From the NCBI GenBank assembly GCA_039621445.1, contig CP154954.1:42091572-42155571 (forward strand): a DNA stretch of 64,000 nt. The letters run 5' to 3'. The stretch comes from Euglena gracilis (lineage: Eukaryota). The position numbers were made by a program, and so were the translations under genes. The notes under the pieces are model-generated. The model saw nothing but the letters and a program-made list of their open reading frames with translations. It did not search any database and was not told the origin of the DNA. Shown in pieces: positions 17,057-62,500 of this stretch (its first letter is position 1; each line of letters opens with the position of its first letter).

Positions 17057-17210
17057 TTGGACGTCTTGTGGGGGGGTCCGGGAAATCTGCGGGAAGAACA
17101 TCCAATCCGCTGAAGGGGAGGGTGAGGCGTCCCGTGGTGAGTCCGCTCATCCCGCGAACAATGTGAAGAGTGAGGAGAATTTGTCCCGCCCCTCCTGAGG
17201 TTTGGGGGGT

Positions 17211-17250
<40 letters not shown>

Positions 17251-17438
17251 CGAGAAAAGGAGGGGGGGGGGAGGGCGGGCAGGTCCTTGGATGCGGCCTG
17301 CCGAGGCGGAAGAAATGTGCCTCTTGGCATCCCCACGGGGGGGGGGGATTCAAGGTCTTTCTGAGCGCTAAAAAGGGGGGGAGTGTATGTGTGCGAGGAG
17401 TCGCTATGACCGCACATAGCCCCTGTGCATGCCGAAAG

Positions 17439-39480: not shown

Positions 39481-39910
39481 CACACAGCCACCCACCCCCA
39501 CCCCACCCCCACCCCCACCCCCACGAGCCACGGCCATGCTGTCGCTGACCAACACTTTCAATTTTCAAAAGTGAACGATCAACCACTTTTTTTTTTGGAA
39601 AATCATTCTGGCCCTGGGGATCCCCAGCTCAGCTGCAAGGCGGCCCAGCCATCTCTCCTAAAATTGTCTGCCAACCAACAACAAAGACCGGCTGAAAAAT
39701 GACTGCAGACACCGGATCTTTAATTTGGAGACAGCCTTGTGCAAAACCCACCCTCATGAAGACCAATTTCGACCAATGTATCCAACACCTTCAGCACCTG
39801 GCGACGAAAAATATTTTTTCGACAAACCTGGCACACATTAGCTCCCCCCCATACATATGGTCACTTCCTCTCTTCCAAAAACCCTGGGGGGGGGGGAGGG
39901 GGACTGGGCA

Positions 39911-40140
39911 CAGGGGTTTTTTTTTAAGACCAGGGGGGAGGGGTCCTCCACCCCACCCGACACACTGGGACCCACAAACTTTTCCGTGAAAACGGCCAAA
40001 AAAACCACGAAAACTCCTTTTTCAAAAAATTTCAGTGCCTTCGGCACAGAAAAGTATATCCCCTAGCGCGGTGGGGGGGGGGGCTCGGCTGGACCCACCG
40101 ACCTACCCTACCCCCCCCACAGGGGTCCAAGACTAAAAGA
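39911..40140. mobile_element. hAT-like MITE with eroded right TIR
   Basis: Starts CAGGGGTTTT. ACTGGGCA is duplicated at 39903-39910 and 40141-40148. Confidence 0.6.
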
Positions 40141-40331
40141 ACTGGGCAAAACAACAAAGAGGCACTCTGGAAATAAAAAACCAGTCAGTCCTCCGACAGC
40201 AAAAAATGAACCCAGCAATGGGGCTGGCTAACTGGAATTCCCCCCCCCCGCCCTCCTAATGAAATTAGAGCCCTTGACAGCATAACAGCATTGCCACACC
40301 TTCTCGGGGAAGAACCGTCCGTTGGGTGCGG

Positions 40332-40794
40332 CAGGGATGTATGGGAAGCCGAGGGGGAGTCCACCCCCCCCCCCCCGAGGAGGAGGGGGAGGGGAACACA
40401 GGAGGGGGAGGGTCGTACCCCGCCTGCGACTGCGAAATGTAAATAAATGCTCGGAAAATTTTCCATCATATGGACTGTCATAGGCTGGGTGACAAACCAA
40501 AACTGTTCAAAAACAATGTTTGATTCTTCTTTAAAATAAACAAAAATGCTCATTTGAATCCATTTTTTCTTCATGCGGAAAACATCAAAGCATTGACAAT
40601 ATGCAATATCCTGAAAAATGAGGGGGGGAGCAAATTTTTTCATTTTCTGAAATGCAGCGCTGGCAGAAAAATGTACGATATTTTTGGAACCAAGGGGGGT
40701 CTGGACCCAACCACCGTACCCCATTGGGGGGTGGGGTTGGGACCCCCCCACCCACCATCTGCCCCAAAACCCAAAGGCTTCCCATACATCCCTG
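40332..40794. mobile_element. hAT-like MITE
   Basis: TIR CAGGGATGTATGGGAAGCC / GGCTTCCCATACATCCCTG. 8-bp TSD GGGTGCGG. Confidence 0.88.
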
Positions 40795-41901
40795 GGGTGC
40801 GGGTACTGCACCTCCTTGTTGGGGAACACCCAAAGCATCCGGAATATCTCAAAACGGGGCTTGAAAGCCATCCTGCTGCAGCCACCAAGGTCCAGTAACT
40901 GCTCCTTGTGGGGGAACGAAAATGCACATTCTGCCCCTCCTCCATCTGCCGTTTCATCATCTGAGAATGCGGAGGTGAACGGTATGCGACAATCAAAAAG
41001 ACATGCACAGCCACCCATCCACCCACCCCCACCAACACCCACCCCCCCCCCCACCCCCCCGTGCCCCCCCCCCCCCCCCGGGGTCCACGACTAAAAAAAA
41101 CCCCTGAATGCAACCAATGTGTTGTGTTGTGCGGGAACAGGTCAGCTGGGTTCCCCACCGGGCCCAGCTGCCTGCTTTTCGCACATTTAATTGTGTGTGC
41201 CATGTGCCAGATTGCCATGTTTTCAAACGTAGCAACCTGGGTGGGGGCGGAGGAAAAAACAAAATGGGCCCAAAACCCAGAGCTGTACGGGCCTGGGGCA
41301 TACATTTTTTACTGACCCCGGGGGGAGGGGCGTCACTCCACTTTTCAAAAAACCAGTCAGTCACTTTTTTGGGAAGCCAGTCAATCACTACCCCCGGGGG
41401 GGGGGGGTCGGCCACTCTGGAATCCAAAGGAAATTTGGGCCCCAAAGCATGCAAAAAAAGCCAAAAAAATTTCCGGCGCCTTCGGCACTGGGGTCACTTT
41501 TGTGGTTTTTGCCGACCCCCGGGGGGGGGGGTCCGGGCCAAACACCAGGGATGAAAGCCAAAAAAAACAGCCACAGTGCACAGAGGGGGGTGGGTGACTG
41601 GTTTTTTCAGAGTGATTGACTGTCTTCTGGCCTGGCGCTGTTGTCCGCCTCTGGCTCTTTTTGCCTGTGTGCGTGGAGGTGGCCGGAGCCTGGCGGTCAC
41701 CCCCCCCCGGGGGGGGGGTGGGACAGTGACTAGGTGATTGTATGGCCTGGTGTGGGGGGGGGGGACAGGGAGGTCGGGTGGGGCTGTGTTGCGAAATTTT
41801 GTTTGGGTGCAACAGACAAATGCCTCCACCCCAAAGAAAAGTTGGGGGACGAGGGTTGGCAGGATGGGCGAAATGCATCGACACGGGGCAGCGCCACACC
41901 T

Positions 41902-43025
41902 TCAGGTCTTCAGGCAACGCCATGGGCACCGCAGCAGCACGTGGGCTTCTTCGCCCGCTGCGGGCGGCGCTGACTTCGGGCCGATGACATCCCAGTGCAT
42001 GGCGGCCTCGAGCCACGGGGTCGGGGCCACACCATTGCTTAGCGACCCGGGGGGGGGTCACTTTCCACTCTGAAAAAACCAGTCAGTCACTTGACCCCCC
42101 CGGGCAAAGCAGAAAAGGAAAGCCTGGTGTGGGGGTCCACCCCCACCCGGGAGGTGGGGGGGGGGGGAGGGTGGGTCGACCCCCCACCACAGCATTTTCA
42201 CAAATTTCGGGGAAACGGGGATTTTGGAGAGAAAATTTTTTGAAAATTTTTTTTGAAAAATGAACCCAAAACACATCATTTTTTGATGGAAAACCACATT
42301 TTTATCACAAAAAAATTCAAAAATTTCAGGTTTAAAAATTGGTGGTTTTGAGCAGGGGGGTTAAAAAAAGTGGACAAAATTTTGGCACAGTCAAATTTTA
42401 TTGATATTTTTTCTCTTTGAATTTTTTTGGACTTTCAACGGCATTTTTTTGCTTCAAAAACCTCTCAAAATCAACATTTTGAGAAAACGTTGAATTTTTG
42501 GAAGGTGTGAAAAAATGGGGTTTTTTTGGGGTGGTTTTTTGGGGGACCCCCTTATTGGGTCCCAAAATGGTCAAAAAAAAGCCACCCGGCGCCGGAAAAT
42601 TTTTCCGGGTCCAAAAATTGGTGCTCCCGGAAATACGGGAAGAGGTGGGGGGTGGTCGACCCCCCCACTCACCATGCAGGGGGGGGGGGTCGACCCCCCC
42701 CCCACCACCCTGGTTGTTCGGCCGATTCCCGTTCTGCCCTGCCCCCTGGGGGCGATCGGCCACTCTTCAGGAGGCAATGAAAATTTGCCAAAAGGTCTTA
42801 CAAAAATCCAAAAAATTTCCGGCGCCTTCGGCCAGCCACATTTTCATTTTTGGGCCTACCGGGGGGGGGGGGGCCCTGGGCCAAAAAAAACCAGTCAGTC
42901 ACTCTGAAAAAACCAGTCACCCCCCCCCGGGGGGGGGAGGACAGGTGTTAAGCAATGGTATGGTCGGGGGCTTCAGCCGCGCCGGCAGCTGGCAGTGGCA
43001 CTGCTGCCGCCTGGCCACCCCCAAT
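41902..43025 (-). pseudogene. Exon-like GC3-rich frame split by MITE 42028-42962
   Basis: Removing the MITE plus one TSD gives VARRQQCHCQLPARLKPPTPWLEAAMHWDVIGPKSAPPAAGEEAHVLLRCPWRCLKT*, with mostly G/C-ending codons. Confidence 0.4.
42028..42962. mobile_element. hAT-like MITE (AAAACCAGTCAGTCAC family) with a nested element at about 42100-42750
   Basis: TIR CACACCATTGCTTA / TAAGCAATGGTATG. TSD GTCGGGGC / GTCGGGGG (7 of 8 match). Confidence 0.75.
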
Positions 43026-43343
43026 GAAACCCGCACAAAAAGCACAAAAAAATGGAGAAAATGCCGTGCGACAACCCTGCCATCGGAATGGGTTGCTCCA
43101 AAAACAACAAAATCGAAAAATGCACAAACCGCCACACAGCTGGTGGGTGCTGACCCCCCCCACCTAAACCATGTACGCCCTCCTTATATCAAACCCTGGG
43201 GTCGGGTCCGTCACACAATGCAACTGCTGGCCAGGCACTTATAAGGACCAAGGAGGGCATTTGCTTTGGTTTTGTGGCTTGTGGCTGTGCTTTGCCCACC
43301 GGAGGCCATCTCTCAACACCATTTCACTTCGACCGCGCTGGCG

Positions 43344-46135
43344 GCCATTTGCTTGCTTCGGCCGCGCTTTGCAACCATTTGCTTGCTTTGACCCGCTGGC
43401 CATTTGTTTGCTTCGGCCGTGATTGCAGCCGTTTGCTTGCTTCGGCCCGCTGCCGGCTGTTTGCTTGCTTTGACCCGCTGACGGCCATTTGCTTGATTCG
43501 GGCGCGATTGCAACCATTTGCTTTCTTCGGCCACGCCGGCAGCCATTTGCTTGCTTCGGCCGCGATTGCAGCCGTTAGCTTGCATTGGCCACGCTGGTCG
43601 TTTGCTTGCTTTGACCTGCTGGCGGCCTTTTGCTTTGTTTGCTTGCTTCGGTTGCGATTGCAGCCATTGCAAGCAAATGGCTGCCAGCAGGTGAAAGGAA
43701 GCAATTGGCTGCAAAGCCGGCAGCCGTTTGCTTGCTTTGGCCACGCTGGGCAGCCATTTGCTTGCTTCGCACTTTGCAGCCGTTTGCTGGCAACAGCCGC
43801 GCTGGGGGCCGTTTGTTTGCTTCGGCCGCAATTGCAGCCATTTGCTTGCTTCGGCTGCGCTTTGCAGCTGTTTGCTTACACCGGCCGCGATTGCAGCCAT
43901 TTGCTTGCTTCGGCCGCGCTTTGCAACCATTTGCTTGCTTTGACCCGCTGGCCATTTGTTTGCTTCGGCCGTGATTGCAGCCGTTTGCTTGCTTCGGCCC
44001 GCTGCCGGCTGTTTGCTTGCTTTGACCCGCTGACGGCCATTTGCTTGATTCGGGCGCGATTGCAACCATTTGCTTTCTTCGGCCACGCCGGCAGCCATTT
44101 GCTTGCTTCGGCCGCGATTGCAGCCGTTAGCTTGCATTGGCCACGCTGGTCGTTTGCTTGCTTTGACCTGCTGGCGGCCTTTTGCTTTGTTTGCTTGCTT
44201 CGGTTGCGATTGCAGCCATTGCAAGCAAATGGCTGCCAGCAGGTGAAAGGAAGCAATTGGCTGCAAAGCCGGCAGCCGTTTGCTTGCTTTGGCCACGCTG
44301 GGCAGCCATTTGCTTGCTTCGCACTTTGCAGCCGTTTGCTGGCAACAGCCGCGCTGGGGGCCGTTTGTTTGCTTCGGCCGCAATTGCAGCCATTTGCTTG
44401 CTTCGGCTGCGCTTTGCAGCTGTTTGCTTACACCGGCCGCGATTGCAGCCATTTGCTTGCTTTGACCCGCTGGCGGTCATTTACCTTTACTTGCTTCGGC
44501 CCGCTTTGCAGCCATTTGCTTGCTTCGGCCCGTTGGCGGCCATGTGCTTGCTTCGGCCGAGATTGAAGCCATTTGCTGACTGTGGCGACGCCGGAAGCCG
44601 TTTGCTTGCTTCGGCCATGACTGCAGCCATTTTCTTGCTTTGGCCGTGATTGCAGCCATTTGCCTGCTTCGGCCGCGCCGGCCATTTGTTTGCTTCGGCC
44701 ACGACGGCAGCCGTTTGCTTGCTTCAGCTGCACTGGCAGCCATTTGCTTGCTTTGACCCGCTGGCCATTTGCTTGCTTAGGCCCCAATTGCAGCCGTTTG
44801 CTTGCTTCGGCCCCGGTTTGCATCCATTTGCTTGCTTCGGCCGCGATTGCAGCCATTTGCTTTCTTTGGCCACACTTTGCAGCTATTTGCTTGCTTCGGC
44901 CACGCCGACCATTTGCTGTTTTGGCCATGCAGGCCATTTGCTTGCTTCAGCCGTGGATTGCAGCCATTTGCTTGCTTCGGCCGCGATTGCAGCCATTTGC
45001 TTGCTTCGGCCGCGATTGCAGCCATTTGCTTGCTTCGGCCGCGATTGCAGCCATTTGCTTGCTTCGACCACGGTTGCAGCCATTTGCTTGCTTCGGCCGC
45101 GATTGCAGCCATTTGCTTGCTTCGGCCGCGATTGCAGCCATTTGCTTGCTTCGGCCGCGGTTGCAGCCATTTGCTTGCTTCAGCCGTGGATTGCAGCCAT
45201 TTGCTTGCTTCGGCCCCGGTTTGCATCCATTTGCTTGCTTGGGCCGCGATTGCAGCCATTTGCTTGCTTCGGCCGCGGTTGCAGCCGTTTGCTTGCTTCG
45301 GTTGCGATTGCAGCCATTTCTTGCTTCGGCCACGCCGACCATTTGCTGTTTTGGCCACGCTGGCCATTTGCTTGCTTCAGCCGTGATTGCAGCCATTTGC
45401 TTGCTTCGGCCGCGATTGCAGCCATTTGCTTGCTTCGGCCGCGATTGCAGCCATTTGCTTGCTTCGGCCGCGGTTGCAGCCATTTGCTTGCTTCAGCCGT
45501 GATTGCAGCCATTTGCTTGCTTCGGCCGAGATTGCAGCCATTTGCTTTCTTTGGCCACACTTTGCAGCCATTTGCTTGCTTCGGCCGCGATTGCAGCCAT
45601 TTGTTTGCTTCGACCGCGATTGCAGCCATTTGCTTGCTTCGGCTGCGATTGCAGCCATTTGGTTGCTTCGGCCGCGGTTGCAGCCATGTGCTTGCTTCAG
45701 CCATGATTGCAGCCATTTGCTTGCTTCGGCCCCGGTTTGCATCCATTTGCTTGCTTGGGCCGCGATTGCAGCCATTTGCTTGCTTCGGCCGCGATTGCAG
45801 CCATTTGCTTGCTTCGGTTGCGATTGCAGCCATTTGCTTTCTTTGGCCACGCTTTGCAGCTATTTGCTTGCTTCGGCCACGCCGACCATTTGCTGTTTTG
45901 GCCACGCTGGCCATTTGCTTGCTTCAGCCGTGATTGCAGCCATTTGCTTGCTTCGGCCGCGATTGCAGCCATTTGCTTGCTTCGGCCGCAATTGCAGCCA
46001 TTTGCTTGCTTCGGCCGCGATTGCAGCCATTTGCTTGCTTCGACCACGGTTGCAGCCATTTGCTTGCTTCGGCCGCGATTGCAGCCATTTGCTTGCTTCG
46101 GCCGCGGTTGCAGCCATTTGCCTGCTTTGGCCACC
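43344..46135 (+). repeat. 29-bp satellite (GCAGCCATTTGCTTGCTTCGGCCGCGATT) with a 552-bp higher-order duplication
   Basis: Period 29 (e.g. 44961 and 44990). ORF pairs offset by exactly 552 (43324/43876, 43630/44182). Confidence 0.95.
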
Positions 46136-47794
46136 CTGGTCTTTTGCTCGCTTCGGCGGGCCGCCTTTGCAGCTTGCTGGTGTGTTTTGGTCAGCCTCGG
46201 CTTGTCACCCGCCTTGGTCCTACAACTAAGTGTTCCGGCCACCCTGGACCAAATGGGTATAAATGCCTGGCTGGGACATCACACATCTGCTGGTGGCTAA
46301 AAAAAAACCAACAAGCCCGACCGAAACTCCGGGAAATGCTGGAACGTGAATGCCAAACTTTGGGGGAAAACAGACAGTGGCAAAAAAATTCAGAAACCAT
46401 TAGCAAATTGCTACCTTAACCTTTACAAAATGGTTATCTTAACAAAATTGTTACCTTTGCAATATGCACATGGGGTTCATAGGGCACAAAAAAAATGCAG
46501 ATGAAAAAACTTTGGCGGCTTCCTTCAAAAATGTCTAGCCGGGTTTCGTCACACCAATTTCTTCCACTCCACTTTTGGTCATTGCCATTTTTTCCTCCAA
46601 CCCTGACCTCAGAAAATGAACAGGAAAGCTGGGGGCTGCGTTTGGCTTCCCATACATCCCTGGGGTGCGGGTACCGCACCTCCTCGTTGGCGAACACCCA
46701 GAACGTCTGGAATATCTCAATACGGGACTTGAAAGCCATCCTGCTGCAGCCTCCCAGGTCCAATAACTGCTCCTTGTGGGGAAATAAAAATACATCCTGC
46801 CCTTCCTCTGTCTGCCGTTTCATCACCTGAGAATGGGGAGGTGAACAGTGGGGGGCACCACGCTAACCAGCGGTTTTTTTTTGTGACCGGGGGTGTCCCC
46901 CGCCATACAATTTTTTACCGACCTCGGGGGGGGGGGGGGGGGGGCACTCAACTTTTTAAAAACCAGTCAGTCACTCATTTTCAAAAAACCAGCCAGTCAC
47001 TACCCCCCCCCCCCCGGGGGGAGGGTCGGCCACTCAGAAAAACGGCCACTTTCCAGTCACTTTGGGCCACTTTAGGCCCCAAAAAATTTCCGGCGCCTTT
47101 GGCGCCGGGGTCACTCAAGCCACTTTTGCCCACTCCTGGCCGACCCCCCCCGGGGGGGGGGGAGGGGGGTCCGGGCCAGAAACCAGTCAGTCACTCTGAA
47201 AAAACCAGTCACCCACCCCCCACACGGGGGGGGGGGGTCGGTCAGTGCTGAAGCAATTGCCTGACCCCCACCCACCCACCCCCCTGGGGGGGGATAAAGT
47301 GGGTGGGTCTGGCCGAGTGGTCTGGTCTGGTCTACCCCCCGGGGGGATATGCTTTTTTCAAAAAATTTCCGCACCTTCAGCGTCAAAACTTTTTTAAACC
47401 TCCCCATCTTCCCCGGGGGTCCAAGGTGGAAAAAAAAACCCCTGATGCATGCACAGCCACCCACTCACCCCCACACCCACAACCACGTGCCACTTCCATA
47501 AAGCTCACCAAAGACATTTGTCAATCAGAGAAAACCAAATAATTCATCCCTGGGGGGGGGGGCAGGGGTCAGGCCAAAAAAAATAAAGCAGTCGCTCTGG
47601 AAAAATGGTCGGTTTCGAAAAAAAATAACACATTTTCTTCATGCTTTTTTATTTTGCACATTTAGCATAACTGCCCCCCCGAAAGCAAGCCTATTCATTT
47701 CAAGAAAAAAAGAAAAATGGCAAAGATGGAGAATGGAGTGTCAATATCAGGAACTGGGGGGTGCCCCCGGGACCAGGTCAGCTAGTCCCCACCA

Positions 47795-48691
47795 TAAACC
47801 CCCCAAATAAGAAACCCCCCGGTTTATTATTTGGACACCCGAAACAGGGAATTTCTTAAGGACCCCCCGGGGGGGGGGGTCCAGCCTCCGGCTGGCAAAA
47901 AGGCTGCTGGCTGGATTTGAGCTGCTGGCTGGACCCCCCCCCCCCGGGGGGGGTGGGGGGGGGGGGGGGGGTCCGGGGCTGGAGCGGGCTGGGCTGGGCT
48001 GGGTCGCCGAAAAACAAAATTTTCTAACACATTTTTGCCATTTTCGACATTTTGATGGGTGGAGCTAGATCAAGGCTGGGGGGCTGTGATGGAGGGGCTG
48101 TGATAAGGGGGAAAAATGCAGGGATAAATGACCTGGACAGCCCAGTTGGCTGGCCGGCCTGCGGCCGGCTGGGCCGGCTGGCCCGGCCTCCGGCCGGGCT
48201 GGACCCGACTTTATTTCACTCGACCCCCGGGGGGGGGGGGCTCCCATCCCGAATTTGGGCTGCTGGCTGGATTTGAGCTGCTGGCTGGCTGGACCCCCCC
48301 CCCCCGGGGGGTAGGGTACCCTCCGGCTTAAGAAATTCCCTGACCCGAAACTGGGCTCCAGGGGGGGGGGGTGTTATTATTTGGGGGGGTTATTATTTGG
48401 GCAAAAATTTAAAAGTCAAAAATTGACCCGAAAACCCCTCCACAGGCTCCAATGGTCGATTTTTTTGGCAATTTTGGGCTTTTTTGAAAATTGTGTGCTT
48501 TTTTTTGGCATATTTTCTGCACCAATTTGATCCATTTTTGTGTTTTTTTGCAGCATTTCTGCTAATTTTTGACTCTTTTTTCCTTTGCCCTCACACCTGC
48601 CAGAGGGGGGGTTTATTATTTGGGCGGCCGAAGTCGGCCCTCGGGGGGGGGGGTTATTATTTGGGGGGGTTATTATTTGGGGGGGGGGTTA
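47795..48691. mobile_element. TA-flanked MITE (motif GGTTATTATTTGG) interrupted by a hAT-like MITE
   Basis: TAAACCCCCCAAATAA ... TTATTATTTGGGGGGGGGGTTA. Confidence 0.6.
47845..48342. mobile_element. hAT-like MITE (CCAGCCAGCAGC-rich family; fragments also near 790-1330 and 33860-34362)
   Basis: Perfect 16-bp TIR CAGGGAATTTCTTAAG / CTTAAGAAATTCCCTG. 8-bp TSD ACCCGAAA. Confidence 0.92.
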
Positions 48692-50370
48692 TCATTGCTT
48701 AGCGACCCCCAGGGGGGTCACTTTCCACTCTGAAAAAAACCAGTCGATCACTTTTTCCGAAAAAAACCAGTCAGTCACTTTTACCCCCCCCTGGGGGGAT
48801 CGGCCACTAATCATGAAACAATGAAAATTTGCCTAAAAATCTCAAAAGGTCCAAAAATTTTCCGGCGTCTTCGGCGCCAGGCCAGCCACTTTATCATTTT
48901 CGGGCCTACCCCACCCCGGGGGGGGGGGGGGCTCTTTCATCCAAGATTGCCGTCTTTGCATCCCCTAACACAAAGTTGTTCTTTTCCAATTGTCCCCCAC
49001 TGAGTTTTCAAAGACGTTTTAAAAGCTTGTGTCACATTTTACGAAATTTTGGTTGTTGATTGGCAAAAATAAAATGGGGATCAAAAAACCCGTTAAAAGC
49101 AAAATTGGCTGTTGTTTTCGCTTTCCGACAAGCCTCATGACTTCCCTTGCTGAATCAAAAACACTCAACATTGTCCTTTTTGACCTTGTGAGAGACATCA
49201 CCTTCACAGCAATCATCATCCAAATCCTTGTCATCGTCTTCCAAGTATTCAAAATCAGGTTCCATCCAAAGCGTGGTGATTGCTGAACCTCGATAAATCA
49301 TCACTTCTTGCAATGAATCTGCAGAAGGTGCGGAAAGAGCGTCACATGCATAGGGGGTAGTTCGTGTCATGGGGGGGGAGCACCACATTTTCGGTTGCCA
49401 AATTCACCGAACCCAAGCTATGGGAGATTTTTCCATAAACTAGGAAATACCCGCTCCTGAAATTTGGTTTTGACACCAAATTAGGTTTTGACACCAAATT
49501 AGGAACCCGGCTGGGAAAGAGGTGCCTGGACCCCCAAGAGGGGTGACAATTAACCGCCAAACAATTGTAAGAATAAGCGATTAACCGCGACCAACTGGGG
49601 GCAGGGCGGTCCTTAAGCAAATTAAAAAAAAAAAAACTCTGCTGTCCCAGCACACTCAATGCAAAATCCACCGGAAAATGGGAAAAGAAGTTGGGAATTT
49701 TTCGGCAAGAACAGGTCGACATCGGGGGAAAAAATGATTCCTGGTGTCCTTGGACCATCGCCCATCCACCCAAACCATCAAAAGATGTGTGTTTGAACTT
49801 TTTAATTTTGGACCCTGTTTAAGTCCCAGTCTGGTTCTTGGCTGGCCTTTTGGCCGAAAGGGGGGGGGGAGGCAGTGCTTAAGAAAATAAAAAAAAAACT
49901 TTCCTGTCCCTTAAAGACCGCCCTGACTGGTGACTGGGGGTCCCAGATTGATTAACCAGACGTCTCAAAAAAAAAACATCATTGAAGAAAAGCACTACCT
50001 CATCGGAGAACTCTTGGGTCGAAACGGCAAAACGCCGAGGGGGTGTGTTTGAGAGCTGTCTGTGAGGGTACCCTCCCCAACGACCAGGTCAGCTGGGTTC
50101 CCACCCCCAAACCCCATTAACACCGGAACCACTGCTGGTCAACTCTTGACGCCAGTTGTGTGTTGCCCTGCTTATTGGCCAAAGGAGCGGTAGGGCCGTC
50201 CAGGGCTGAGGAGAAAGGCATCTGGCGGCACCGCATCTTGAAAATTGCCAAAATTTCGATATACGGGGGGGGTAGGAAAACGCCTGCCATATACGAGGTC
50301 AGACTTGCACTGCTTGACAGCATAACGGCAGTGCCACACCTTCTCGGGAAGAACTGTCCTCCGGGTGCGG

Positions 50371-50820
50371 CAGGGGTGTATGGGAAGCCCTGAGGGGGAG
50401 GGGGAGTCTGACCCCTCCCAACACGGGAGGGGGAGGGTCGGACCCCGCCTCCAACCTCGAAACATCAAGCGCTCGCAAAATTTTCCATCACTTTCTGCCA
50501 CTGCTGCATCCCAGAAAAGCAAAAAAATTGCCCCCTCATTATGAAGCGTATTGAACATTTTTGATGTTTTGGTGTTTTCCGCATGCAAAAAAAATGGCCA
50601 AAATGAGCATTTTTGGGTTTTTTTTTGACAGAGAAAAAAGCAGTTATTTTTTGAACAACCTTGGCTTGGCATCCAGCCCATTGACTGCCCACAACTCTCC
50701 ACGTTTTCGGAACCAAGGGGGGTGGACCCAACCACCTTACCCCATTGGGGGCGGGGGTTTTGGGACCCCCTCCCACCGCACCATCTACCCCAAACCCAAA
50801 GGGCTTCCCATACATCCCTG
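50371..50820. mobile_element. hAT-like MITE, paralogous insertion to 40332-40794
   Basis: Same TIR family, same TSD GGGTGCGG, same flanks. Confidence 0.85.
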
Positions 50821-51163
50821 GGGTGCGGGTGCCGCACCTCCTCATTGGCGAACACCCAGAACGTCTGGAATATCTCAATACGGGACTTGAAAGCCATCCT
50901 GCTGCAGCCTTCCAGGTCCAATAACTGCTCCTTATGGGGAAATAAAAATACATTCTGCCCCTCCTCCATCTGCCGTTTCATCACCTGAGAACGGGGAGAT
51001 GTGCGGTGGTGGACACCATGAAAGACACACTCAAACACGCACACCCACACACCCACACAGCCACCCTGACCCCACACACACACACATGTGCCAGGACTAT
51101 AATATTGCCTCCCGCTTCCCCCAGTCCCCCGCCACCCCCCCCACAGGGATTGCGTCTCCCAAC

Positions 51164-52032
51164 CATACCATTGCTTAGCGACCCCCGGGGGGGGAGGGGG
51201 GGGAGGGGGGGTCACTTTCCACTCCGAAAAAACCAGTCAGTCACTTTACCCCTCAGGGGGGGGGGTCGGCCACTCAGGAAAACCAGTCACTTTTTGGCCT
51301 TTCAAGGCCATTTTTGGCCAAAATTTTCTCTGGCGCCTTCGGTGCCGGTTGGCCACTCAGCCACTTTTGGGTGATTTCTGACCTACCCCACCCCCAGGGA
51401 TGGATGGGAAGCCTTGAGGGGGGGGGGGGTCGGCCCCCCCCCTCCCGACACGGAGGGGGGGGGGTGGGTCGGACCCCCCCCTCCTACCTCGAAACTGAGG
51501 GGGGGGGGCCGAAATTTTTTTCGATTTCATGGACGGGCAAAGGGCCGGAAATCGGGTTGGAATCGGTCAAAAACCCCTGATTTTTCTTTGAAAATCGATC
51601 CAAAAATGCTCATTTTTTGAATTTTTTGAACATGTTTTTGGGGGAAAAAACCAACACATCAAAAAATGGGCAATATGGCCAAAAGTGAGCAAAAGGGGTG
51701 TTTTTTGCTCATTTTCCGGCGCGCAGCGCCGGAAGAAAATTTTCTGCTATTTTTGGCACCTGTCAAGGAGGGGGGGGTGGGGGGACCGGACCCCCCCTCC
51801 CAACATCTAGGGGGGGGGGGGGGCCGGACCCCCCCCTGCCCACTTACCCCCCCCAGGGGGGGGGGTGGTCGGGACCCCCCCCCCTACCACCTGCCTCAAT
51901 ACCGAAGGGCTTCCCATCCATCCCTGCCCACCCCCCCCGGGGGGGGGGTCACGGCCAAAAAACCAGTCAGTCACTCTGAAAAAAACCAGTCAGCCACAGG
52001 GTGGGGTGGGACAGGTGTTAAGCAATGGTCTG
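51164..52032. mobile_element. hAT-like MITE (AAAACCAGTCAGTCAC family)
   Basis: TIR CATACCATTGCTTA / TAAGCAATGGTCTG. 8-bp TSD CTCCCAAC. Confidence 0.85.
51395..51926. mobile_element. hAT-like MITE nested in 51164-52032 (relatives at 53737-54219, 60968-61360 and about 1625-1950)
   Basis: TIR CAGGGATGGATGGGAAGCC / GGCTTCCCATCCATCCCTG. 8-bp TSD CCCACCCC. Confidence 0.88.
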
Positions 52033-52207
52033 CTCCCAACCAACAACAAGAACCGGCTGAAAATGGCCGGAGGCAATGGTTAATGCTTGGGAGACATGCC
52101 TTGTGCAAAGCCCACCCTCACAAAAACCATTTCTCAATCAGAGTTTTTTCCATATTGTCAATTGAATATTCGATATTCAGAAATCAATATTTCAGGCGCC
52201 TGGCAGC

Positions 52208-52525
52208 GGGGGGTAGATTTGGCCTGGGGGGGGGGGTTGTGGGCAGACCCTAGGGTCGCCAAAGGTCGCCATGGTCGCCAAAGGTCGTGGGCAGGTCGAT
52301 GTCAAAAAATGCGCTCCACGGCAAATTAGCGCAACATACACACAAAAGGTGTTGCACACACAAGGGATTTTTTTTTTTAGGGCCCTGGAACAGTTGCCTA
52401 CGCCGCTACAATGCAAAAAAGACTGAGTAGGAAATACCCATAGCGACCTTTGGCGACCTTTGGCGACCGTGGGCAGACCCTAGGGTCTGCCCACAACCCC
52501 CCCCCCCAGGCCAGATCCGGGAGCC
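52208..52525. mobile_element. Mutator-like palindromic MITE
   Basis: Long inverted arms GGCCTGGGGGG...TTGTGGGCAGACCCTAGGGTC. Flanking direct repeat CCTGGCAGC(G), 9-10 bp. GG...CC ends. Confidence 0.65.
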
Positions 52526-54259
52526 CCTGGCAGCGAAATTTTTTTTCAACCAGACCCAACATATGTTTCCCGCCTCCCCCCACCCATACATATGGTCACT
52601 TCCACTCTTCCAAAAAACCAGCCATTCATCCCTGGGGGGGGGGGCAGAAATAAACAAAGAGTCACGCTGAAAAAAAGTGCGCAACAAAAACTTGCAATTT
52701 GACTTTTTTTGCATTTTGGGGCTTATTGCATCCCACCCCCACCTGAAGATGTCCAAAAATAGTCCAGTTCCTAAAAAAAATTACCCATTCATTCTGATTT
52801 TTTAACATTTTTGCACATTTGGCATACCCCCCCAAAAAGCAAGCCTCTCCCTTCAGCAAAAAGAATAATTGGCAAGGATGGAAAATGCAGGGATGCTAAT
52901 TATGCTAATTATTTCATCACCCAACAAACTCGGAATTTTTGATTAAGGTTGCGGTTTTGGTTGGGCCACAGCTGGCCGAACCCAACCAACGACTGCCCAC
53001 CAAAATGGCTTCCCATTTTAGGATGCGTGAAAATCAGGCATTTGCTTAAGGACCCCGGGGGGGGGGGGGTACTGGCTAGCCAATCGGCTAGACACTGGAA
53101 AAAATGGATTTGCTGGACCCCCCCCCTCCTCACCGGAACTTTTTGGGGTGTTTTTCGTCTAAATCCATTGCTTCTGAGGCATTTTTTCCTTAGTGTCTCC
53201 AGAGTAACTGACTGCCCCAGGTGGGTGGGGGGGGGGTAGAAAATGGGTGATTGGTTTTGAAATGTGGCTGACTGGGTTTTTTTTGAAGTTGAAGGTGACC
53301 TCTTTCAAATGAACGACAGTTTTTTGAAAATCATTCTGGTCCCCGCGAGACCCTACCGATTGTTGGCACCTTACAGCGAAATTTTTTTAAAAAGGCCCTG
53401 CATATATTTTTTACCAGGCAATTGCTTAAGGGATTGCAGTACCCCCCCCAGGGGGGGCTGGACTGTTGCTAGTCCAAATTTGGCAAGTGGGATTTCTAGC
53501 AGACCCCCCCCCCCCGGGGGGGTCTGCTAGCAGGGCTAGCTGGTGGAAAAATTTTTCCCAGTGACCGGCGCGAAGCGCCGAAAATTTTTTGGGGACCCCC
53601 CAAAAATGGCCAAAAATGCCCGTTTTTGGCCATTTTTGAAAAATTTTGGAACAAAATCAGCCAAAAACCTATTGAAAACCTCGTTTTTCCAGTTCGGGGG
53701 ACCCTGGAACCCCCCCCCCCCCAGTGGGGAGGGGGGCAGGGATGGATGGGAAGCCCTTCGGTATTGAGGTAGGTGGTAGGGGGGGGGAGTCCCGACCACC
53801 CCCCCCCCCCCTGGGGGGCAAGGTGGTAGGGGGGGTCCGGACCCCCCACCCCCCCTCCTTGACAGGTGCCAAAAATAGCAGAAAATTTTCTTCCGGCGCT
53901 GTGCGCCGGAAAAAAATGAGCAAAAACACCCTTCTTGCTGACTTTTGGATATATTGCCCTTTTTTGCTGTGTTGGTGTTTTCCCCCCAGAAAAGTGTTCA
54001 AAAAAATTCAAAAAATGAGCATTCTTGGATCGGTTTTCAAAGAAAAATCAGGGGGTTTTGACCGATTTCGACCCGATTTCCGGCCCTTTGCCCGTCCATG
54101 AAATCGAAAAATTTTCGGCCCCCCCTCAGTTTCGAGGTAGGAGGAGGGGGTCCGACCCCCCCCCCGTGTCGGGAGGGTGGTCCGACCCACCCCCCCCTCA
54201 AGGCTTCCCATCCATCCCTCAGTCCAGCACCCCCCGAAAAATTCCTCACACAGAAACCC

Positions 54260-56706
54260 AAACCCCCACCCACACGCGCGCACCTCATCTTCACCGTCGC
54301 GGCTGGGCACATGCTGCTCCGGCCCACCCACCGCCGCCACTCTGCCGGCGGCTGCGGCGGGGCTGCCTTCTGGCGACCCCGGTGTTGCCCATCCCAGAGT
54401 GGAACGCATTGGTACCTGTTTCTCTGTGAACGGCTTCGGACCTCCTTTCAACCCATGCTGCCCCCACCAAATTGGACGGCCAAACCTTTGGTTGGCCGTC
54501 TGAAAAAAGGCCCACCCAGACTAAACACACAGCCACCACTGAGAGCTCTTTTCCCACTGGGGGCTGGGTTCTGGTGGAACCAACTTTTTTTGTTGTGGAA
54601 ACGCATTGCCGCAAAAAACAGATAAAAAAATATGCGGCGACCGTCAATGCAGCCGACATTGTCTGCCCAGGCCCAATGCCACCCACCACCAAACATCAGG
54701 AGACACATCAACATTGGTCAGTGGATCAAATCAAATGCATGGCATGGCGAGGCACTTATCATCCAATGCCTGAACCTAAACCTCATACAGTGGCCTTGTT
54801 TGGGGCACGACCCAAGAAACAAACAGGGTGGCCAAAGAAACAGGCACAAGATGTGACGAGCAGATAGAACACTGGCGGAACACCTTTTGGCTACCTTTGC
54901 AGCCATAATACGGTGAGCAGGGCCCAATGCGTCCAAGGTGGCCGCTGCAAAGCGAGAGGTCCAAAGCAGCCAAAGCTGAACCACAGCAAGTGCAGACCCA
55001 AAGACAGGTCCAAGGTGGCAAAACTGCTTCAAAGCTGCTGAAGCGCTGCAGAACGACGCAAGACTGCGTCAAAAGGAGGCGGCCAGAGTGACCAAAGGAA
55101 GAAGGGCAGAACGAGCAAAGCAGCCGGTGGAAAGCAGGCCATGAACACGGCCAGAAGCAGTTAACCAGTGGCCACCACTAACCACCTTTCCCCCGTTGTC
55201 TGGCTTGGGATCATAAATGCCTCGCCGGGACATCATCTGTCTGGTGGTGGGGAGGCATATGGGCAGGCTGCAACCCCACCCATATGGGAAACAATCAAAA
55301 AAATATTCACAAACCTAAAAAAAAATAAATCAAAAATCAAAAATAAAATCACAAAGCTTCAGAGAATTGAATGCACCCCAAAAAATGTGTGTGAAGAAAT
55401 TTCACAGGAAATTGGCTTCTTTATGAACACACCAAATTCCCCTGCCCCGAGGGCATCGGTGGGATGGAACAAACTGAGGGATCGGTGACGTTTTCAAACG
55501 ACAAAAAAAAAACGTGCCCCCCTCTCCTGCAACTTGGTGATGAATTTCTTTAAAATTAACCGCTGGCCCAACCCACCGAAGCGTTCACCACACCTCTACC
55601 AAATCAAACCAACCCCAAAATGATGGGGACGCCAGGCGGGAGGCGCTGTTCCTGTTGCTGCTCCTCCTGCGCTCCTGTTGATGCTGCACCTGCGCTCTTG
55701 CGGTTGCCGCCTGCCTTCAGTGCCCCTTGGCAACATATCCAACTGGGGGAAAAATGCCAACCCTGGTGGACTGCACGTGTCGCGCGTTGGACGCTGAACC
55801 TTCATTGTGTGTGTGTGCGTGTGTGTGTGTGCGCGTGCGTGTGTGTGTGGGCGTTCGCCAAAAACGTGCCCATCTGCATGCGTGTGAATTGTATGGCCAC
55901 CTGAGGGAGACAACAACATGCACAACCCTTAAGGTAGCACAGGGCACTGGGCTGGCAGGTGGGGGTGGGTGCTGGGTTGGCATGGGCAGCAGACACGTCG
56001 AAATCGAACTTCATGGTGGAGAGGACCTGAATGTACCGGGGGGCAATGACGCAAAATTCTGGGGGAAAACACACCATACTGCGTCCAGTTTCAGAAAAAA
56101 CAAGTCACCACTTGAAAAGAACACTGAGCGGTATGGGCTGCACTCTACAACGAACAATTGCATGGTGAGGATGAAAGGCAAAATATAATGCTTTTGGAAG
56201 CTTCGAATCCATGCGCTCCACCGCCTTCCTTGTTTCCATCCTGCCATTTTTGACTGAAATCAAGCCCGACACCCCCTCTTTGTGCGTATTTCTGCCAATC
56301 CAGCAGTACACACCTGAGCGGTTTGCGGCGAGAGGTGTGCAGAGGTGCTGCCTCGCATATGCCCCCGCGCACGCTCCTGCGCCTGCCCTCGCGCCCCACC
56401 CGTGCCTTCGCTGCCGCCTGCCGGATCCCTTCAGTAACCCCTGCTCATACCACGCCGGGTTCGCCGGGTTGAGGTGGGGGTAAAGCATGCTTCCATTCCA
56501 CTCCACCATCACATACTCCCCTCGCGTGTCCATCGCACGCGTTCGGTGCACACTCCTGGGGGTGCAGTACAAGCGTCCACGGGTTGGAAAAGGGAAACCC
56601 AGCACCGGTGAGCTGCCGGGTGGGAGCAGGGGGCCCTGAGCTGGCGGGTGGGGAACGGGTGCTCGGTTGGCGATGCAGCAGCGCCATGGCTCCGAGGTGG
56701 ACTGGA
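54260..56706 (+). repeat. Diverged duplicate, copy 2, with about 500 bp extra (55925-56427)
   Basis: Colinear with 34950-36860. Confidence 0.85.
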
Positions 56707-59700
56707 GATGGGGCTGAGTGCCAATCCCCTGCTCACCCCCGCAACCAAGGAAAAAAAAAACTGGCAGATGCCTCACCAAAACACCGACCAAAATTGTCCC
56801 CAGACAGAGGAAAATGCAATGAAAAACTTTCCTGTCAGACTTGCATATATTCCATTTTCCCCCCAGAATTTTCCCTGAAAATCAGTTTACGACCATTCAA
56901 AAAAAAAACCCAGTTGACCTGAATTTCTGCTCTTCTGTTTTAATGGTGACCACATGTTCTCATTACCCAGAAAATTTGCACACGTGTGCATGCATTGTCC
57001 CGGACCAGATTGCCGGGGGAGCAGGGTGCAGTGGCCGCCCGCGTGGTGAGAGGTCGACCTGAAAATGCGGGGCAATCACCCACCCCTCAATTATGATGCT
57101 CAGGCTGCAGCCCAAACCCCCCCCCCCCAAAGCAAGGAAGTGGTCCAGACCACTCCCCCGCGCGTTGTTTTGGGGGTGCATTGTTGTACTGGACCCCGTC
57201 GAGCATTCTTCTCAAGGGCGCCGATTTTTTGGTCAAAAATTTCCATCCGTACTGTTGGCGCCAAAACATTCTTTCTTTGCATGGTGCTGTGGTGGGGGGG
57301 CCTACCCCCCCCGTCTTAAAAGAAATCCATGGAGTTCAGGGAGTGGAGTTCCATTCAAACCCTGCAGGTTTTGCTTTGCTGGTGCCGATCTGGGCAGCTT
57401 TTAGTGCAAACCCTCTGAGTGGGCAAACCACGGATTTATAAAAAGAGGTAAAAAGTGATAAAAAGAAACAATAATCCTCATTTCCTGTGGATTCGCTCAA
57501 TCATTTGTTTGCTCCAGGGTTCAACAAAAAGCCTTCGGGGGCGTGGGGGCAAAATCAATTTAATATTTGTGCAGGATTTCATGCACCTTGGGGGGGGGTG
57601 AAGTTTGGGGTGGTTGCATTTGGGGGGGAACAACTGAAAGCAAAGAAAATAAAACAACTAACAACCCGCTAGGTCTTGCATCCAACTCTGTGGGTGGGGC
57701 AAACAGTGGGCAAGCAGCGGAACACCTGGCGGACAGGCCGGCCAATGCTTCGGAGGGCGCTGGGGAGGGGCTGGGGGACTGGGGGCTGCCCGCACCCGCA
57801 CCCGCACCCGCACCCGCCGTTCCGGCCGCGGCCGCCGCCGCCTCCGCCTCCGCCGCCGGCCCCGGCTGCCGCGTCTTCAGTGCCCCCTGGTCGCGCCGCA
57901 AGCCAAAGACATACGGGGGGTGGGGGTGCGGCGCAGGCTGCGTGAGGTGGGGGCGAGGCGCGGGAGAGACAGCAGGGGACGGACTCCACTAACTCCACCA
58001 ACCCATACCAGAAACGTGTTGTGGTGTGCGTGCATGCGCAGAAGCGTGCGAGTCACCCAGAAAAATTTTTGACACAATGGGAAACAAACTGGTATTAAAA
58101 GCACAGAATCGCAAACCACCAAAACTGGTGGGCAGTGCCACGGGGCACTGGATTGGAAGGGGGGTTGTGGTAGGGCCACGTTGTGAGAGGCCGAATTCAA
58201 AATAAAAAGAAAACAATGATGGGATGGAATACAACATGCAAAATGCCAAAGATTTATTTTTTTAAAAAAAAGAGAGACGATAAGAGAGTCCAAACAAAAT
58301 TGCTTCCAGAATACACAGATAAATCAACCTTTCTACAAAATACATTTTCAACAAAAAACAATTGAAACACGGAATATCATCTCTTGATCAAACAAGTGAA
58401 TAGAAAACAATACAAAACAACTATAATAATAATAATAAAATACAATAAATCAACAACTGAGTTTTGATGGTTGGGCAGAAAACAGCAAAAAATTGAACCA
58501 GGCACAAACGACTCCCACCGCCCGCTGCTGAATAAAAAAATTGCAAATTTCAATGTGACTCACAAAAATTTTCAAACCCACAAAACTCTTGGTGCCCACA
58601 ACAACAATAAAAGTTGGTTGTGCACAGACCTTTTCCCAAAAATGAGTCGCAAAAAAATTGGTACTCACGCGTGACCCACAAAAAAGCCACCTTGGACGAA
58701 TGCAGGTTTCATGGTGATGACTTTCTATTTCCCAAACCCATGCTCCCCCCTTTTCATAGAGCACAGCAGCGGATGTCGTTTCATGCCACAATCAGGACAA
58801 ATAGCAAAAAAAAATGATGATGATGTGGTTGCCATTGGCCCATCACCATAGCCCTTTTGTTCCACCATTGCCACCATGTGGTTGGCAGTTGACGGGAGGT
58901 GCCAAGGGCAATGTTTTGGATAACACCCTTAAACAAATACCAAAATGCAATTCAAACCCAAAAAACGCTTTTGGCGTCTTCCCACCAGCCTGCAACTTTC
59001 AGACTCCATTTTTTTTCCACACCAGCAACGTTTCTGGACATCATTCGTTGCAAAAACCTTTAAAAACTCCTCCAGCCACCATTGAAAACTCTGCTCCTCA
59101 GGCGCAACCCACACCGACAAAAAAAACCAACCCAAAGGTAGCCCCCAGGCACGGCAAAAAGAAAAAAAAAGTCGGCGGAGAAGGTGGCGATGTTGTTGTA
59201 ATGAATGAGAGGAGAGGGAGGGTTGGGCGGCGGCTGAGGCGATCCTGGGAGCTGTCAACTTCACCCCCGTGTGCCCAGCCCCCCCCCCCACCCCAACCCT
59301 GTCCCCCCGGGGCCTTACGCTATGTGACAGCCCCCGCTGGGCGGGGCAGTCAGGCGACAGACGAAGGGCCGGTTGGGAATCCCGGCTACGGTGTCCCCCC
59401 TCACCCCCCCCCTACGGCCCCGCTCCCAACCGGCCCTTCTCGCGGCGGAAGGCCAAGGGGGTCCCCCGTTCCCCTTGGCCGCGGTCTGCCCGGTTTGCCA
59501 GGCCCAGGGCCCTGGCCCAGCCGCGCTTAGTGGCGCCGGGGGTGGCTGGGGGGGGGCAGCCTCGGGGGCGGCCTCCTTTCCAGGCGGGAGGGGGATTGGG
59601 CATGGGAGGGAGGGGATGGGGGGTTGGGGGAGGGCTGGTGGGCAGCCCACATTGCTGTGGGCCGCCCGCCAACCCTGCCCCCGGCGTGCGTGCCAACCGC

Positions 59701-60170
59701 TGCGTGTCGTGGCCACCGTCCCCTTTCAAACCGGAGGGGGAGCAGAGAGGGCGCAAAGCAGGGGGGGCTGATGGGGGGCCGGCATCCCTGTGGGCCACCC
59801 ACCAGCCTCCCCCTGGGAGGGAGGGGAGACTGCGCTGGGAGGGAGGGGGCGTAGATCCCAAAAAGAAGGGGATGGGGAGAAAAAGAGGCCTGGCAGATGA
59901 GCTGGGTGGAGCTGAAGGGCTGGGGCTGAAGCCGCGGCCTGCAAGGCGGGAAGGGGCTGTTGGGCTGAACCCCCAGTTTGCTCGGCTTCGATTGGCATTT
60001 TCAAGCATGGCATTGGGGGGCGATGTGGAATTAACCCAAAATATAATCTCACCACAGAAGGAAAACCTTGTCCGTTAACATCAACAGAACCCCCCCTTTT
60101 GAGTTTTGCGCAACCTTCTGGCATCTTTTATGTGTAGGGTAAGTTTTTCCTTCCAAACCACGCCCCCCCA

Positions 60171-60732
60171 TAACCCCCCCCCAAAAATAAGACCCCTCTG
60201 GGCCGATCGAGCAAAAATCCAAAAATAAGACCCCCCTTGACGGCGCGAAGCGCTGGGGACGGTCAGATTTTCCACTGAAAAATTACCAAAACCCCCAATT
60301 TCTTACCCCCCCCCCCCATGTCCGATGACCGGTAACTGTCTGTTCTCTGACCGGGGGGGGGGGGTGGTCGTTGGACATAGGGTAGTGACCAAAAAGGTGT
60401 CCTCTGACCGGGGGGGGGGGGTGGTCGTTGGACATGGGGTCAAAAGAAAGTTGGTGGGTACCCGGGTCCCTACCCACCCAAAAATGCCCAAATTTTCCCT
60501 TCCGGCGCTTTGCGCCGAAAATTTTGGGCAATTTTGACAAATTTTTGTCCAAAAAGTGTCAAAAATGGAAGTTTGGCCAAAAAATTTTAGTGCTCTTGGG
60601 AACCTGAAAAATGGCGTTTTTTCGGGCCCTGGTCGGTCAAGAAAAAAATTAAAAATAAGACCCCCCCCCTGGAGGCTTCCAGCAACGGACCCAAAAACAA
60701 GACTCGGGTCTTAATTTGGGGGGGGGGGGTTA
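60171..60732. mobile_element. TA-flanked Tc2/pogo-like MITE (motif AAAATAAGACCC)
   Basis: TAACCCCCCCCCAAAAATAAGACCC ... GGGTCTTAATTTGGGGGGGGGGGGTTA, with the motif reiterated subterminally. Confidence 0.7.
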
Positions 60733-60919
60733 TGCCCGATTTATACCTGAAAATTGCTGAAATTTTGCTGTTCGGGGGGCATTGGGCAGCAGTGGTTCTG
60801 CTGTTGATGGGGGTTTGGGGGGTGGGGAACCCAGCTGACCTGGTCCCGGGGGCTGATTGCGCATTTTGGCACCCCCCAGTTCCTGGCATTGAGGCAATCT
60901 GGCCCTCCTGTGCCCCGAT

Positions 60920-61581
60920 CAGGGGTTTTTTAGAGACCGGGGGGGGGGGAGGGGGGGTCCCCCCCACCAGGGATGGATGGGAAGCCTTGAGGGGGGGGGG
61001 GTGGGTCGGACCCCCCCCTCCCGACACGGAGGGGGGGGGGGGTGGGTCGGACCCCCCCCTCCTACCTCGAAACTGAGGGGGGGCCGAAAATTTTTCGATT
61101 TCATGGACGGGCAAAGGGCCGGAAATCGGGTCAAAATCGGTCAAAAATCCCTGATTTTTCTTTGAAAATCGATCCAAAAATGCTCGTTTTTTGAAATTTT
61201 TTGAACAATTTTTTGGGGGAAAACACCAACGCATCAAAAAAAGGGCAATATGTGCAAAACTCAGCAAAAAGGGGTGTTTTTGCTCACTTTCCGGCGCGCA
61301 GCGCCGGAAGAAAATTTTCTGCTATTTTTGGCACCTGTCAAGGAGGGGGGGGTGGGGGGGTCCGGGGGGGGGGGGAGGGGGTCCCGGGGGACCCACAAAA
61401 AATGGCCGAAAAATCGCGAAAAGTGCTAAAAATAGAATTTTTTCGGCGCCTGCGGCGCCGAAAAGTATATCCCACCCCCCTCCGGGGGGACCCCCCCCGG
61501 GGGGGGGGAGGGAGTCCGGCGGACCCACCCACCCTACCCCCCCTCCCCCCCCCCAGGGGTCCAAACTTAAAAAAATCCCTG
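60920..61581. mobile_element. hAT-like MITE with a nested truncated MITE
   Basis: CAGGGGTTTTTTAGAG ... CTTAAAAAAATCCCTG. 8-bp TSD GCCCCGAT. Confidence 0.82.
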
Positions 61582-62077
61582 GCCCCGATGTATACCTAAA
61601 AATTGCAAAATTTTGCTGTTTGGGGGTGTTTGGGCAGCAGTGGTTCTGGTACTGATGGGGTTTTTAACCCAGCCCCGGGGGCTGGTTGCGCATTTTGGCA
61701 CCCCCTTTTTCTGGCATTGAGGCAATCTGGCCCATGAAACCACGCCCCCCCCCCCAAATGCCCAGAAATTATACTTGAAAATTACCGATATTTTGTTTTT
61801 TGGGGGTGTTGGGCAGCAGTGGGAACTTTCATCTGACGGCACACACACAAACACACACATACCATATAAAGCCCAGGGGGCTGTTTGCCAGATAAAGCCC
61901 GCGTAAGGGGGCAGTTGATAACCATGGGGAGCTTGAAGAGCCGGGGCCACAGGGACTGGGGACGCTGCAGGTTGGGGCCCAAGGCGGTCAGGGGCTGTGG
62001 GGTTTGAGGCCCAGGGACACCAAGGACGCTGCTGTAGGGGGGGCAGTGGGGTGGCCGGGAGCTGCGCAGGTGGGGGG

Positions 62078-62500
62078 CAGGCATTTGCTTAAGCACCCCG
62101 GGGGGGGGGGGTACTGGCTAGCCAATCGGCTGGACACTGGAAAAAGTGGACTAGCTAGACCCCCCTCCCCCCCCCGGGGGGGGGCTGGGGGGTCTGGGGG
62201 GTCTGGGGGGTCCCCTGACTGGAAAAATGAGGCTTTTAACAGGTTTTTGGCTGATTTTGTTCCAAAAATTCCCAAAAATGGCCAAAACCGGGGATTTTTG
62301 GCCATTTTTGGGGGTCTCAAAAATAAATTTTGGCGCTTCGCGCCGGTCACTGGAAAAATTTTTTCCACTAGCTAGCCCTGCTAGCAGACCCCCCCCCCCC
62401 CGGGGGGGTCTGCTAGAAAACCCACTAGCCAAATTTGGACTAGCTGCAGTCCAGCCCCGCCGGGGAGGGGACGTACTGCAATCCCTTAAGCAAATGCCTG
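62078..62500. mobile_element. hAT-like MITE (relatives near 53036 and 53415-53710)
   Basis: Perfect 16-bp TIR CAGGCATTTGCTTAAG / CTTAAGCAAATGCCTG. 8-bp TSD GTGGGGGG. Confidence 0.92.

Follow-up and report, generated by a model that had tools for sequence, protein, structure and literature searches.

Could the insertion of a transposable element supply, ready-made, one of the nonconventional introns of euglenids? [quoted passage not shown] The reading that we favour, and that we consider probable, is that nonconventional introns stem, at the DNA level, from MITEs of this kind, which would be seamlessly erased from RNA.

Reading the sequence directly, together with a script, revealed at least five families of non-autonomous MITEs, 0.4–0.9 kb in length, that span 38.6–62.5 kb of the window. 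(The families are called non-autonomous because no DNA transposase was found in the open reading frames (ORFs) scanned.) Their terminal inverted repeats (TIRs) have 13–22 matched bases, with CAG at the start and CTG at the end, and TSDs could be checked at seven insertion events, matching at 8 of 8 positions in six of them and at 7 of 8 in the other. The script looked for pairs of CAG...CTG tips with a TIR of at least 12/16 and exactly matching flanks. It returned seven pairs at a flank length of 8 (one of these, 38682–40794, is a cross-pairing of two neighbouring copies), compared with 1, 0, 3, 0, 1, 0, 0 and 0 pairs at flank lengths of 4, 5, 6, 7, 9, 10, 11 and 12, respectively, such that length 8 alone stands out. 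Moreover, none of 20 dinucleotide-preserving shuffles yielded any pair at a flank length of 8. An earlier reading of this DNA, made from its letters (the sequence-only reading), had claimed at least five TIR families with 8-bp TSDs, and direct reading, the flank-length control and the shuffles all bear this out: the MITEs are DNA insertions with 8-bp TSDs. Intact copies are confined to 38.6–62.5 kb, and outside this interval there are only degenerate termini, at 1624, 6536 and 33286. When the TSDs were compared position by position with the hAT target consensus, no clear target-site preference was apparent (T at position 2 in three of seven and A at position 7 in three of seven).

The resemblance between these elements and euglenid nonconventional introns (PMC3935182; PMC4770533; PMC12501133) lies in the pairing of CAG at positions +4 to +6 with CTG at positions −8 to −6, in an extended terminal stem, in direct repeats at the junctions, in CAGG tips, and in a length range from tens of nucleotides to kilobases. 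Such introns make up 71.8% of the introns of E. agilis, and the splicing code reported for them is 5'-N3-CDG ... CH'G-N5-6, then R across the junction, with pairing next to the motifs; on the donor side the spacer measures 3 nt and tolerates no change in length, and on the acceptor side it measures 5 nt, 6 nt also being accepted (PMC12501133). Fully synthetic 50-nt introns, designed with CAG and CTG, 3- and 5-nt spacers, 12 bp of complementarity beside the motifs and a purine opening the 3' exon, were spliced like natural ones (PMC12501133). The validated introns EaNC-INT1, 3, 8 and 10 and EgNC-INT1, from dataset 9 of the same paper, all start with N3 followed by CAGG and end with CTG followed by N5, and 69.1% of nonconventional introns are described there as "slidable" owing to repeats at their junctions. 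An intron newly gained in one strain of E. agilis has eight-nucleotide direct repeats at its junctions, longer than those of older introns (PMC4770533).

The tip letters of the validated introns are the same as those of five families in the window (A, A2, C, D and E), and in these five an element together with its TSDs supplies the N3-CDG...CH'G-N5(6) geometry. The 3 nt that close the left TSD and the 5 nt that open the right one add up to 8, so that one whole TSD would leave with the element, and because the flanks are direct repeats this seamless geometry holds on either strand. The sequence-only reading had put forward this arithmetic, and it agrees with the published spacers, 3 nt upstream of CAG and 5 nt downstream of CTG, which were derived experimentally. 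It would also give one simple reason for three published facts, namely spacers of 3 and 5 nt that sum to one TSD, introns that are for the most part slidable, and 8-nt repeats in a new intron. Folding of the corresponding RNA is consistent with this correspondence. In particular, the family A copy at 40332–40794 (463 bp; TIR CAGGGATGTATGGGAAGCC, 22/25; TSD GGGTGCGG, 8/8) folds with a 19-bp terminal stem that starts exactly at CAG:CTG (z −4.6), and the family D element at 62078–62500 (423 bp; TIR CAGGCATTTGCTTAAG, 16/16; TSD GTGGGGGG, 8/8) folds with a 16-bp terminal stem that likewise starts exactly at CAG:CTG (z −5.7).

The family A copy at 40332 lies within one of four PsaD-like units that form a tandem array on the minus strand at 39269–51071, where Pfam matches to PsaD fall on minus-strand ORFs. 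The units were placed by tblastn, all on the minus strand, at 39269–39487 (U39), 40797–41006 (U40), 46665–46869 (U46) and 50823–51071 (U50). When the PsaD-like units were searched against solved structures the best match was 9vfj_D (E 3e-34), a chain of 698 aa with three PsaD-like stretches, followed by 9vjs_D and 9uas_D (E 1e-11 and 1.7e-11, respectively); according to the search listings all three are Euglena gracilis photosystem I entries, and the next match after the E. gracilis entries had an E value of 3.7e-6. Because the three best PsaD matches are all E. gracilis photosystem I entries, the host is likely a euglenophyte. Thus the supposition of a euglenid host, on which the sequence-only reading had made its intron proposal depend, is borne out as likely. 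Identity to E. gracilis PsaD is only ~60% because the units have decayed, and the array could represent a copy, now dead, of a PsaD precursor gene with several units.

Each of the four PsaD-like units has family A at the same codon. The copy in U50 (50371–50820, 450 bp; TIR 29/36; TSD GGGTGCGG, 8/8) occupies the same site as that in U40, and the two copies share conserved sequence over ~100 nt at either end, with a centre that is not alignable. Note that exons and MITE ends are both ~85% alike between U40 and U50, and that the centre of the element has been replaced and has not simply diverged. The copy in U39 (38682–39271) has its left end and TSD intact and lacks 17 bp at its right junction: the element has lost the TG of its final CTG, and with it have gone the TSD copy and 7 nt of exonic sequence. 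U46 has lost most of the family A element, together with the sequence downstream of the MITE site, and retains a right-end remnant with its TSD (46644–46662; GGGTGCGG), the rest of the element being replaced by unrelated sequence. The copies at 38682, 40332 and 50371, and the right end at 46662, go back to a single ancestral insertion duplicated along with the PsaD-like unit, and they are not separate insertions, as had first been supposed.

Removal of the element and one TSD in silico rejoins the PsaD-derived frame exactly, giving ...KEVQYPHPTDG.. in U40 and ...EEVRHPHPED.. in U50. The E. gracilis chains read ...GEVQYLHPKDGVFPEKV and ...VQYLHPKDGVFPEKV (...HPKDG...) at the matching stretch, colinear with the restored HP(T/E)D. 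The PsaD-derived frame is interrupted by exactly the element plus 8 bp, with no codon gained or lost, and the expectation that removal restores the pre-insertion sequence is in this sense upheld.

We propose the following mechanism. The window would be euglenophyte nuclear DNA rich in MITEs of hAT-like anatomy, with short TIRs that mostly begin CAGGG and 8-bp TSDs that arise at integration. A transcript that reads through such an insertion would carry a ready-made nonconventional intron, because the intron signal, N3-CAG-stem-CTG-N5-purine, is just what an element and its TSDs supply. Cuts made 3 nt ahead of CAG and 5 nt beyond CTG would remove the element with exactly one copy of the TSD, and because of this the mRNA would regain its pre-insertion sequence, whichever orientation the element has. 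From the geometry we infer that MITEs could be removed from RNA in this way, and a copy in the window may be, or may once have been, a working intron.

Several features of the window weigh against the proposal that its MITEs give rise to introns. The PsaD-like units, judged by their sequences, are pseudogenes, with frameshifts in U39, U40 and U50: upstream of the MITE, U39 and U40 are thrown out of frame by 2 inserted nt, and there is a shortfall of 1 nt (U40) or 2 nt (U50) just after the DG or D codon, before FFPEKV or LPEKV, respectively. Because the units are frameshifted, the family A element may have entered a gene that was already dead. This pseudogene array is the only genic context in the window, and most MITE copies lie in repeat-rich DNA with no recognisable gene; unlike euglenid nonconventional introns, the window elements are DNA insertions with intact TSDs that are mostly outside recognisable genes. 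In addition, the would-be 3' exon opens with TSD position 6 on the sense strand. The other TSDs have a purine at this position on one strand or both. It is C on both strands in family A, which on the PsaD sense strand therefore has, unlike the intron code, a pyrimidine where a purine is preferred. Finally, family B fails the CDG rule: the G of CAG is missing from three of its four tips, because of which family B in its present form cannot be classed among the CAG...CTG elements. The claim of CAG...CTG tips thus stands for families A, A2, C, D and E and falls for family B. Similarly, the idea that these MITEs are intron-generating elements gains from the geometry, the host, the 8-nt repeats of the new intron and the interruption of the PsaD-derived frame, but its only genic context consists of pseudogenes.

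These same features invite an alternative, which we regard as unlikely, in which the elements are hAT-like MITEs of an ordinary kind in a region rich in repeats and poor in genes, their match to the intron geometry is coincidental, and they contribute little or nothing to introns. In organisms that have no such introns, hAT elements typically show an 8-bp TSD and YARNG tips, no copy in the window is in a demonstrably active gene, and the family A site carries a pyrimidine in place of the purine preferred by the code. However, the signal that suffices for splicing of synthetic introns in Euglena is what an element plus its TSD supplies, the validated introns named above start with CAGG as these tips do, and a new intron has been reported with 8-nt repeats. 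These three correspondences count against coincidence.

To which superfamily the elements belong is a separate matter. The hallmarks of hAT elements are an 8-bp TSD, short TIRs and a YARNG terminal motif (PMC3014272). Families A, A2, C and E start with CAGGG and fit YARNG; family D (CAGGC) and family B (CA(C/T/G)AC) do not, which counts against a hAT assignment. The window elements resemble hAT MITEs (PMC3014272) in their 8-bp TSD, their short TIRs, the YARNG tips of A, A2, C and E, their non-autonomy and their mutual nesting; unlike hAT MITEs, they include families that depart from YARNG (B and D), have no cognate transposase among the ORFs scanned and have no clear TSD preference. Also against hAT membership, Pfam detected neither a hAT transposase nor any other DNA transposase among 262 ORF translations from the window, and an autonomous hAT transposase sharing these TIRs, for which the sequence-only reading had proposed a search, is absent from this set; such an enzyme would have a BED finger, a DDE core and a hAT dimerisation domain. 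Above the curated score cut-offs, matches among the 262 translations were to PsaD and reverse transcriptase only. (Note that the set comprised 46 + 119 + 97 translations. It excluded 11 low-complexity ORFs of the 321 of at least 80 aa beyond 16.5 kb, most satellite ORFs at 43.3–46.2 kb, many ORFs shorter than ~100 aa at 16–40 kb, and most of those at 1–16 kb.) With TSD length and terminal motif as the whole basis of the assignment, membership of the hAT superfamily is about an even call.

An origin in another superfamily that makes 8-bp TSDs, Merlin or P, in place of hAT would rival the family assignment only and would leave the link to introns untouched; we think it improbable. Some Merlin families known from E. 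gracilis make 8-bp TSDs (PMC8101967), such that they share with the window elements both TSD length and a euglenid host, and families B and D fall outside YARNG. The stated Merlin tip, however, is 5'-GG, and in E. gracilis Merlin sequences the TSD is followed by GGTACTTG (PMC8101967), not by CAG or CAGG as in the window elements. Moreover, E. gracilis Merlin encodes a DDE_Tnp_IS1595 transposase (PMC8101967), and the window ORF translations scanned contained no DDE domain of the IS1595 type. Because of the difference in tips, a Merlin identity of the elements is unlikely.

A route with the direction reversed and no transposase, in which introns spread through RNA or repair (by way of circular RNA or double-strand-break repair) and the 8-nt repeats are a by-product, is in our estimation very unlikely: the authors of PMC4770533 interpret the 8-nt repeats as pointing to double-strand-break repair, excised introns are reported as circular RNAs (PMC11282704), and no transposase is found among the 262 translations, but a constant 8-bp duplication over at least five unrelated bodies, the nesting and the insertions into non-genic repeats better fit a transposase that makes staggered cuts.

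The proposal that MITEs are a source of nonconventional introns could be taken further, in a form to which we attach little credence. Removal of a nonconventional intron might exactly reverse the integration of a transposon with an 8-bp stagger: the spacers of 3 and 5 nt would be the fossil of a TSD, the excision machinery would measure from the TIR stem and would have co-evolved with, or been derived from, a hAT-like transposition system, and the excised circle would consist of the element and the rejoined 8-nt target. If true, such a reversal would account for the spread of transposons into exons at next to no cost, and for their share of ~70% among the introns of a genome.

Transposons and introns have been linked before. 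Maize Ac/Ds termini begin like those of family A, and in 1994 Giroux reportedly described a Ds element that created an intron de novo. The introner elements of Micromonas, dinoflagellates and Fritillaria (PMC11282704) are alike in being transposons with TIRs and TSDs that have turned into introns, and in that the TSD helps to define splice boundaries. Unlike the euglenid route, which involves a stem-measured cut and reportedly releases circles, introner elements leave through the spliceosome, using GY-AG or relaxed sites (PMC11282704).

As for euglenids themselves, an origin of nonconventional introns from MITEs was proposed in 2014, by authors who noted that no euglenid transposons were known at the time (PMC3935182). 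CAG and CTG have since been described as a TIR and the junction repeats as TSD-like (PMC11282704), and the discussion of PMC12501133 suggests that the removal machinery mitigates transposon insertions. An explicit statement that 3 and 5 nt together make one 8-bp hAT-type TSD was not found in the literature searched, which consisted mostly of passages: neither "8 bp" nor "hAT" is present in the 2024 review (PMC11282704), and in the main text of PMC12501133 "hAT" is absent and "8 bp" occurs once, for the −8 bp position of CTG. (The supporting information (SI) appendix of the latter paper may bear on this point.) Similarly, the tip motifs of the MITEs had no match in the texts of the papers or in the supplements of the Merlin paper, where long runs of sequence were shortened. 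The general idea of a MITE origin is thus in print already, and what the window would add is concrete families of the predicted type together with a possible explanation of the spacer rule, which makes the MITE hypothesis directly testable. (Note that a scan of metagenomes with the family A/A2 tip gave 11 loci, none of which had an inverted partner with at most 4 mismatches. With no inverted partners, these loci were rejected as relatives and read as chance matches.)

The remaining elements are as follows. Family A2 is represented by a 532-bp MITE at 51395–51926 (TIR 22/25; TSD CCCACCCC, 8/8) that is nested, with its own TSD, in a family B element at 51164–52032 (869 bp including the nested A2; tips CAT/CAG; TIR 14/16; TSD CTCCCAAC, 8/8). 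The other family B element (42028–42962, 935 bp; tips CAC/CAT; TIR 14/16) is the one with an imperfect TSD (GTCGGGGC/GTCGGGGG, 7/8), and its right boundary, as first given, has been corrected to 42962. Family C is a 498-bp MITE at 47845–48342 (TIR CAGGGAATTTCTTAAG, 16/16; TSD ACCCGAAA, 8/8), and family E a 662-bp MITE at 60920–61581 (TIR 13/16; TSD GCCCCGAT, 8/8) within which a truncated A2 is nested from 60968. A third A2 copy, at 53737–54220, lies in reverse orientation in a reversed family D-like element; one of its tips is CTC and not CTG, and its flanks are mismatched. For the family E-like element at 39911 (39911–40140, 230 bp), placing the right end at a CTG gives flanks that match at 0 of 8 positions. 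It does have an 8/8 TSD (ACTGGGCA), but its right tip is then not CTG.

Family E inserted at a junction of short tandem units. At the paralogous junctions at ~60735 and ~61770 the 8-mer GCCC(C)GAT is present once, and at the filled site it is present twice. The single 8-mer at the paralogous junctions gives moderate support to the insertion of family E as DNA; note that the left flank aligns poorly.

Two recurrent motifs, AAACCAGTCAGTCAC and long palindromes of a C-run and a G-run (CCCCCCCGGGGGGG), are found at 41340–41420, 42060–42100, 42885–42920, 46958–47215, 51227–51245 and 51960–51990, some in loose fragments and others within families B, C and D; subterminal binding repeats are one possible identity for them. 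A large hairpin at 52216–52517 has 42-nt arms that are 98% complementary, with 218 nt between them. It lacks CAG...CTG tips and belongs to another kind of element.

Further searches with the PsaD-like array gave little. The 63-aa PsaD-like exon returned neither a PsaD relative nor a transcript-derived product from protein databases. Its sole match, a 6114-aa repeat protein, was set aside as chance, since this protein resembles a bacterial surface-repeat protein and has nothing PsaD-like about it. The 28-aa downstream exon, a query too short for the purpose, had no match among solved structures. Between U40 and U46 lies a 29-bp satellite (43327–46132, ~97 copies, 75% matches, consensus CTTCGGCCGCGATTGCAGCCATTTGCTTG). 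Scans of the whole window with Rfam and for transfer RNA (tRNA) genes gave no matches.

Other repeats are found across the window. The segments 5853–7171 and 32592–33966 are inverted duplicates, 98.6–98.7% identical and ~26 kb apart, each of which holds one of the degenerate family A-like termini (6536 and 33286); the flanks of these termini are mutually reverse-complementary. A direct duplicate of ~1.4 kb, with 77–91% identity, joins 34946–36575 to 54256–55918; it begins immediately past 54220, where the third A2 copy ends, and could be a further repeat family. Pfam matches to RVT_1 fall on ORFs at 8514–11540 (minus strand), 11640–15023 (plus strand) and 30097–30525 (minus strand), and one reverse-transcriptase ORF also has a weak, Dam-methylase-like match below the cut-off. 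Reverse-transcriptase elements at 7273–10555 and 12981–16271 form a head-to-head inverted pair that is 86% identical over 3.3 kb, and a third, partial copy is located at 29875–31408. Within the inverted pair, elements at 7289–7617, 15920–16255 and 16264–17446 are flanked by the palindrome CCTCGAGG and have perfect 14-nt inverted ends; their apparent TSD may be part of the repeat itself.

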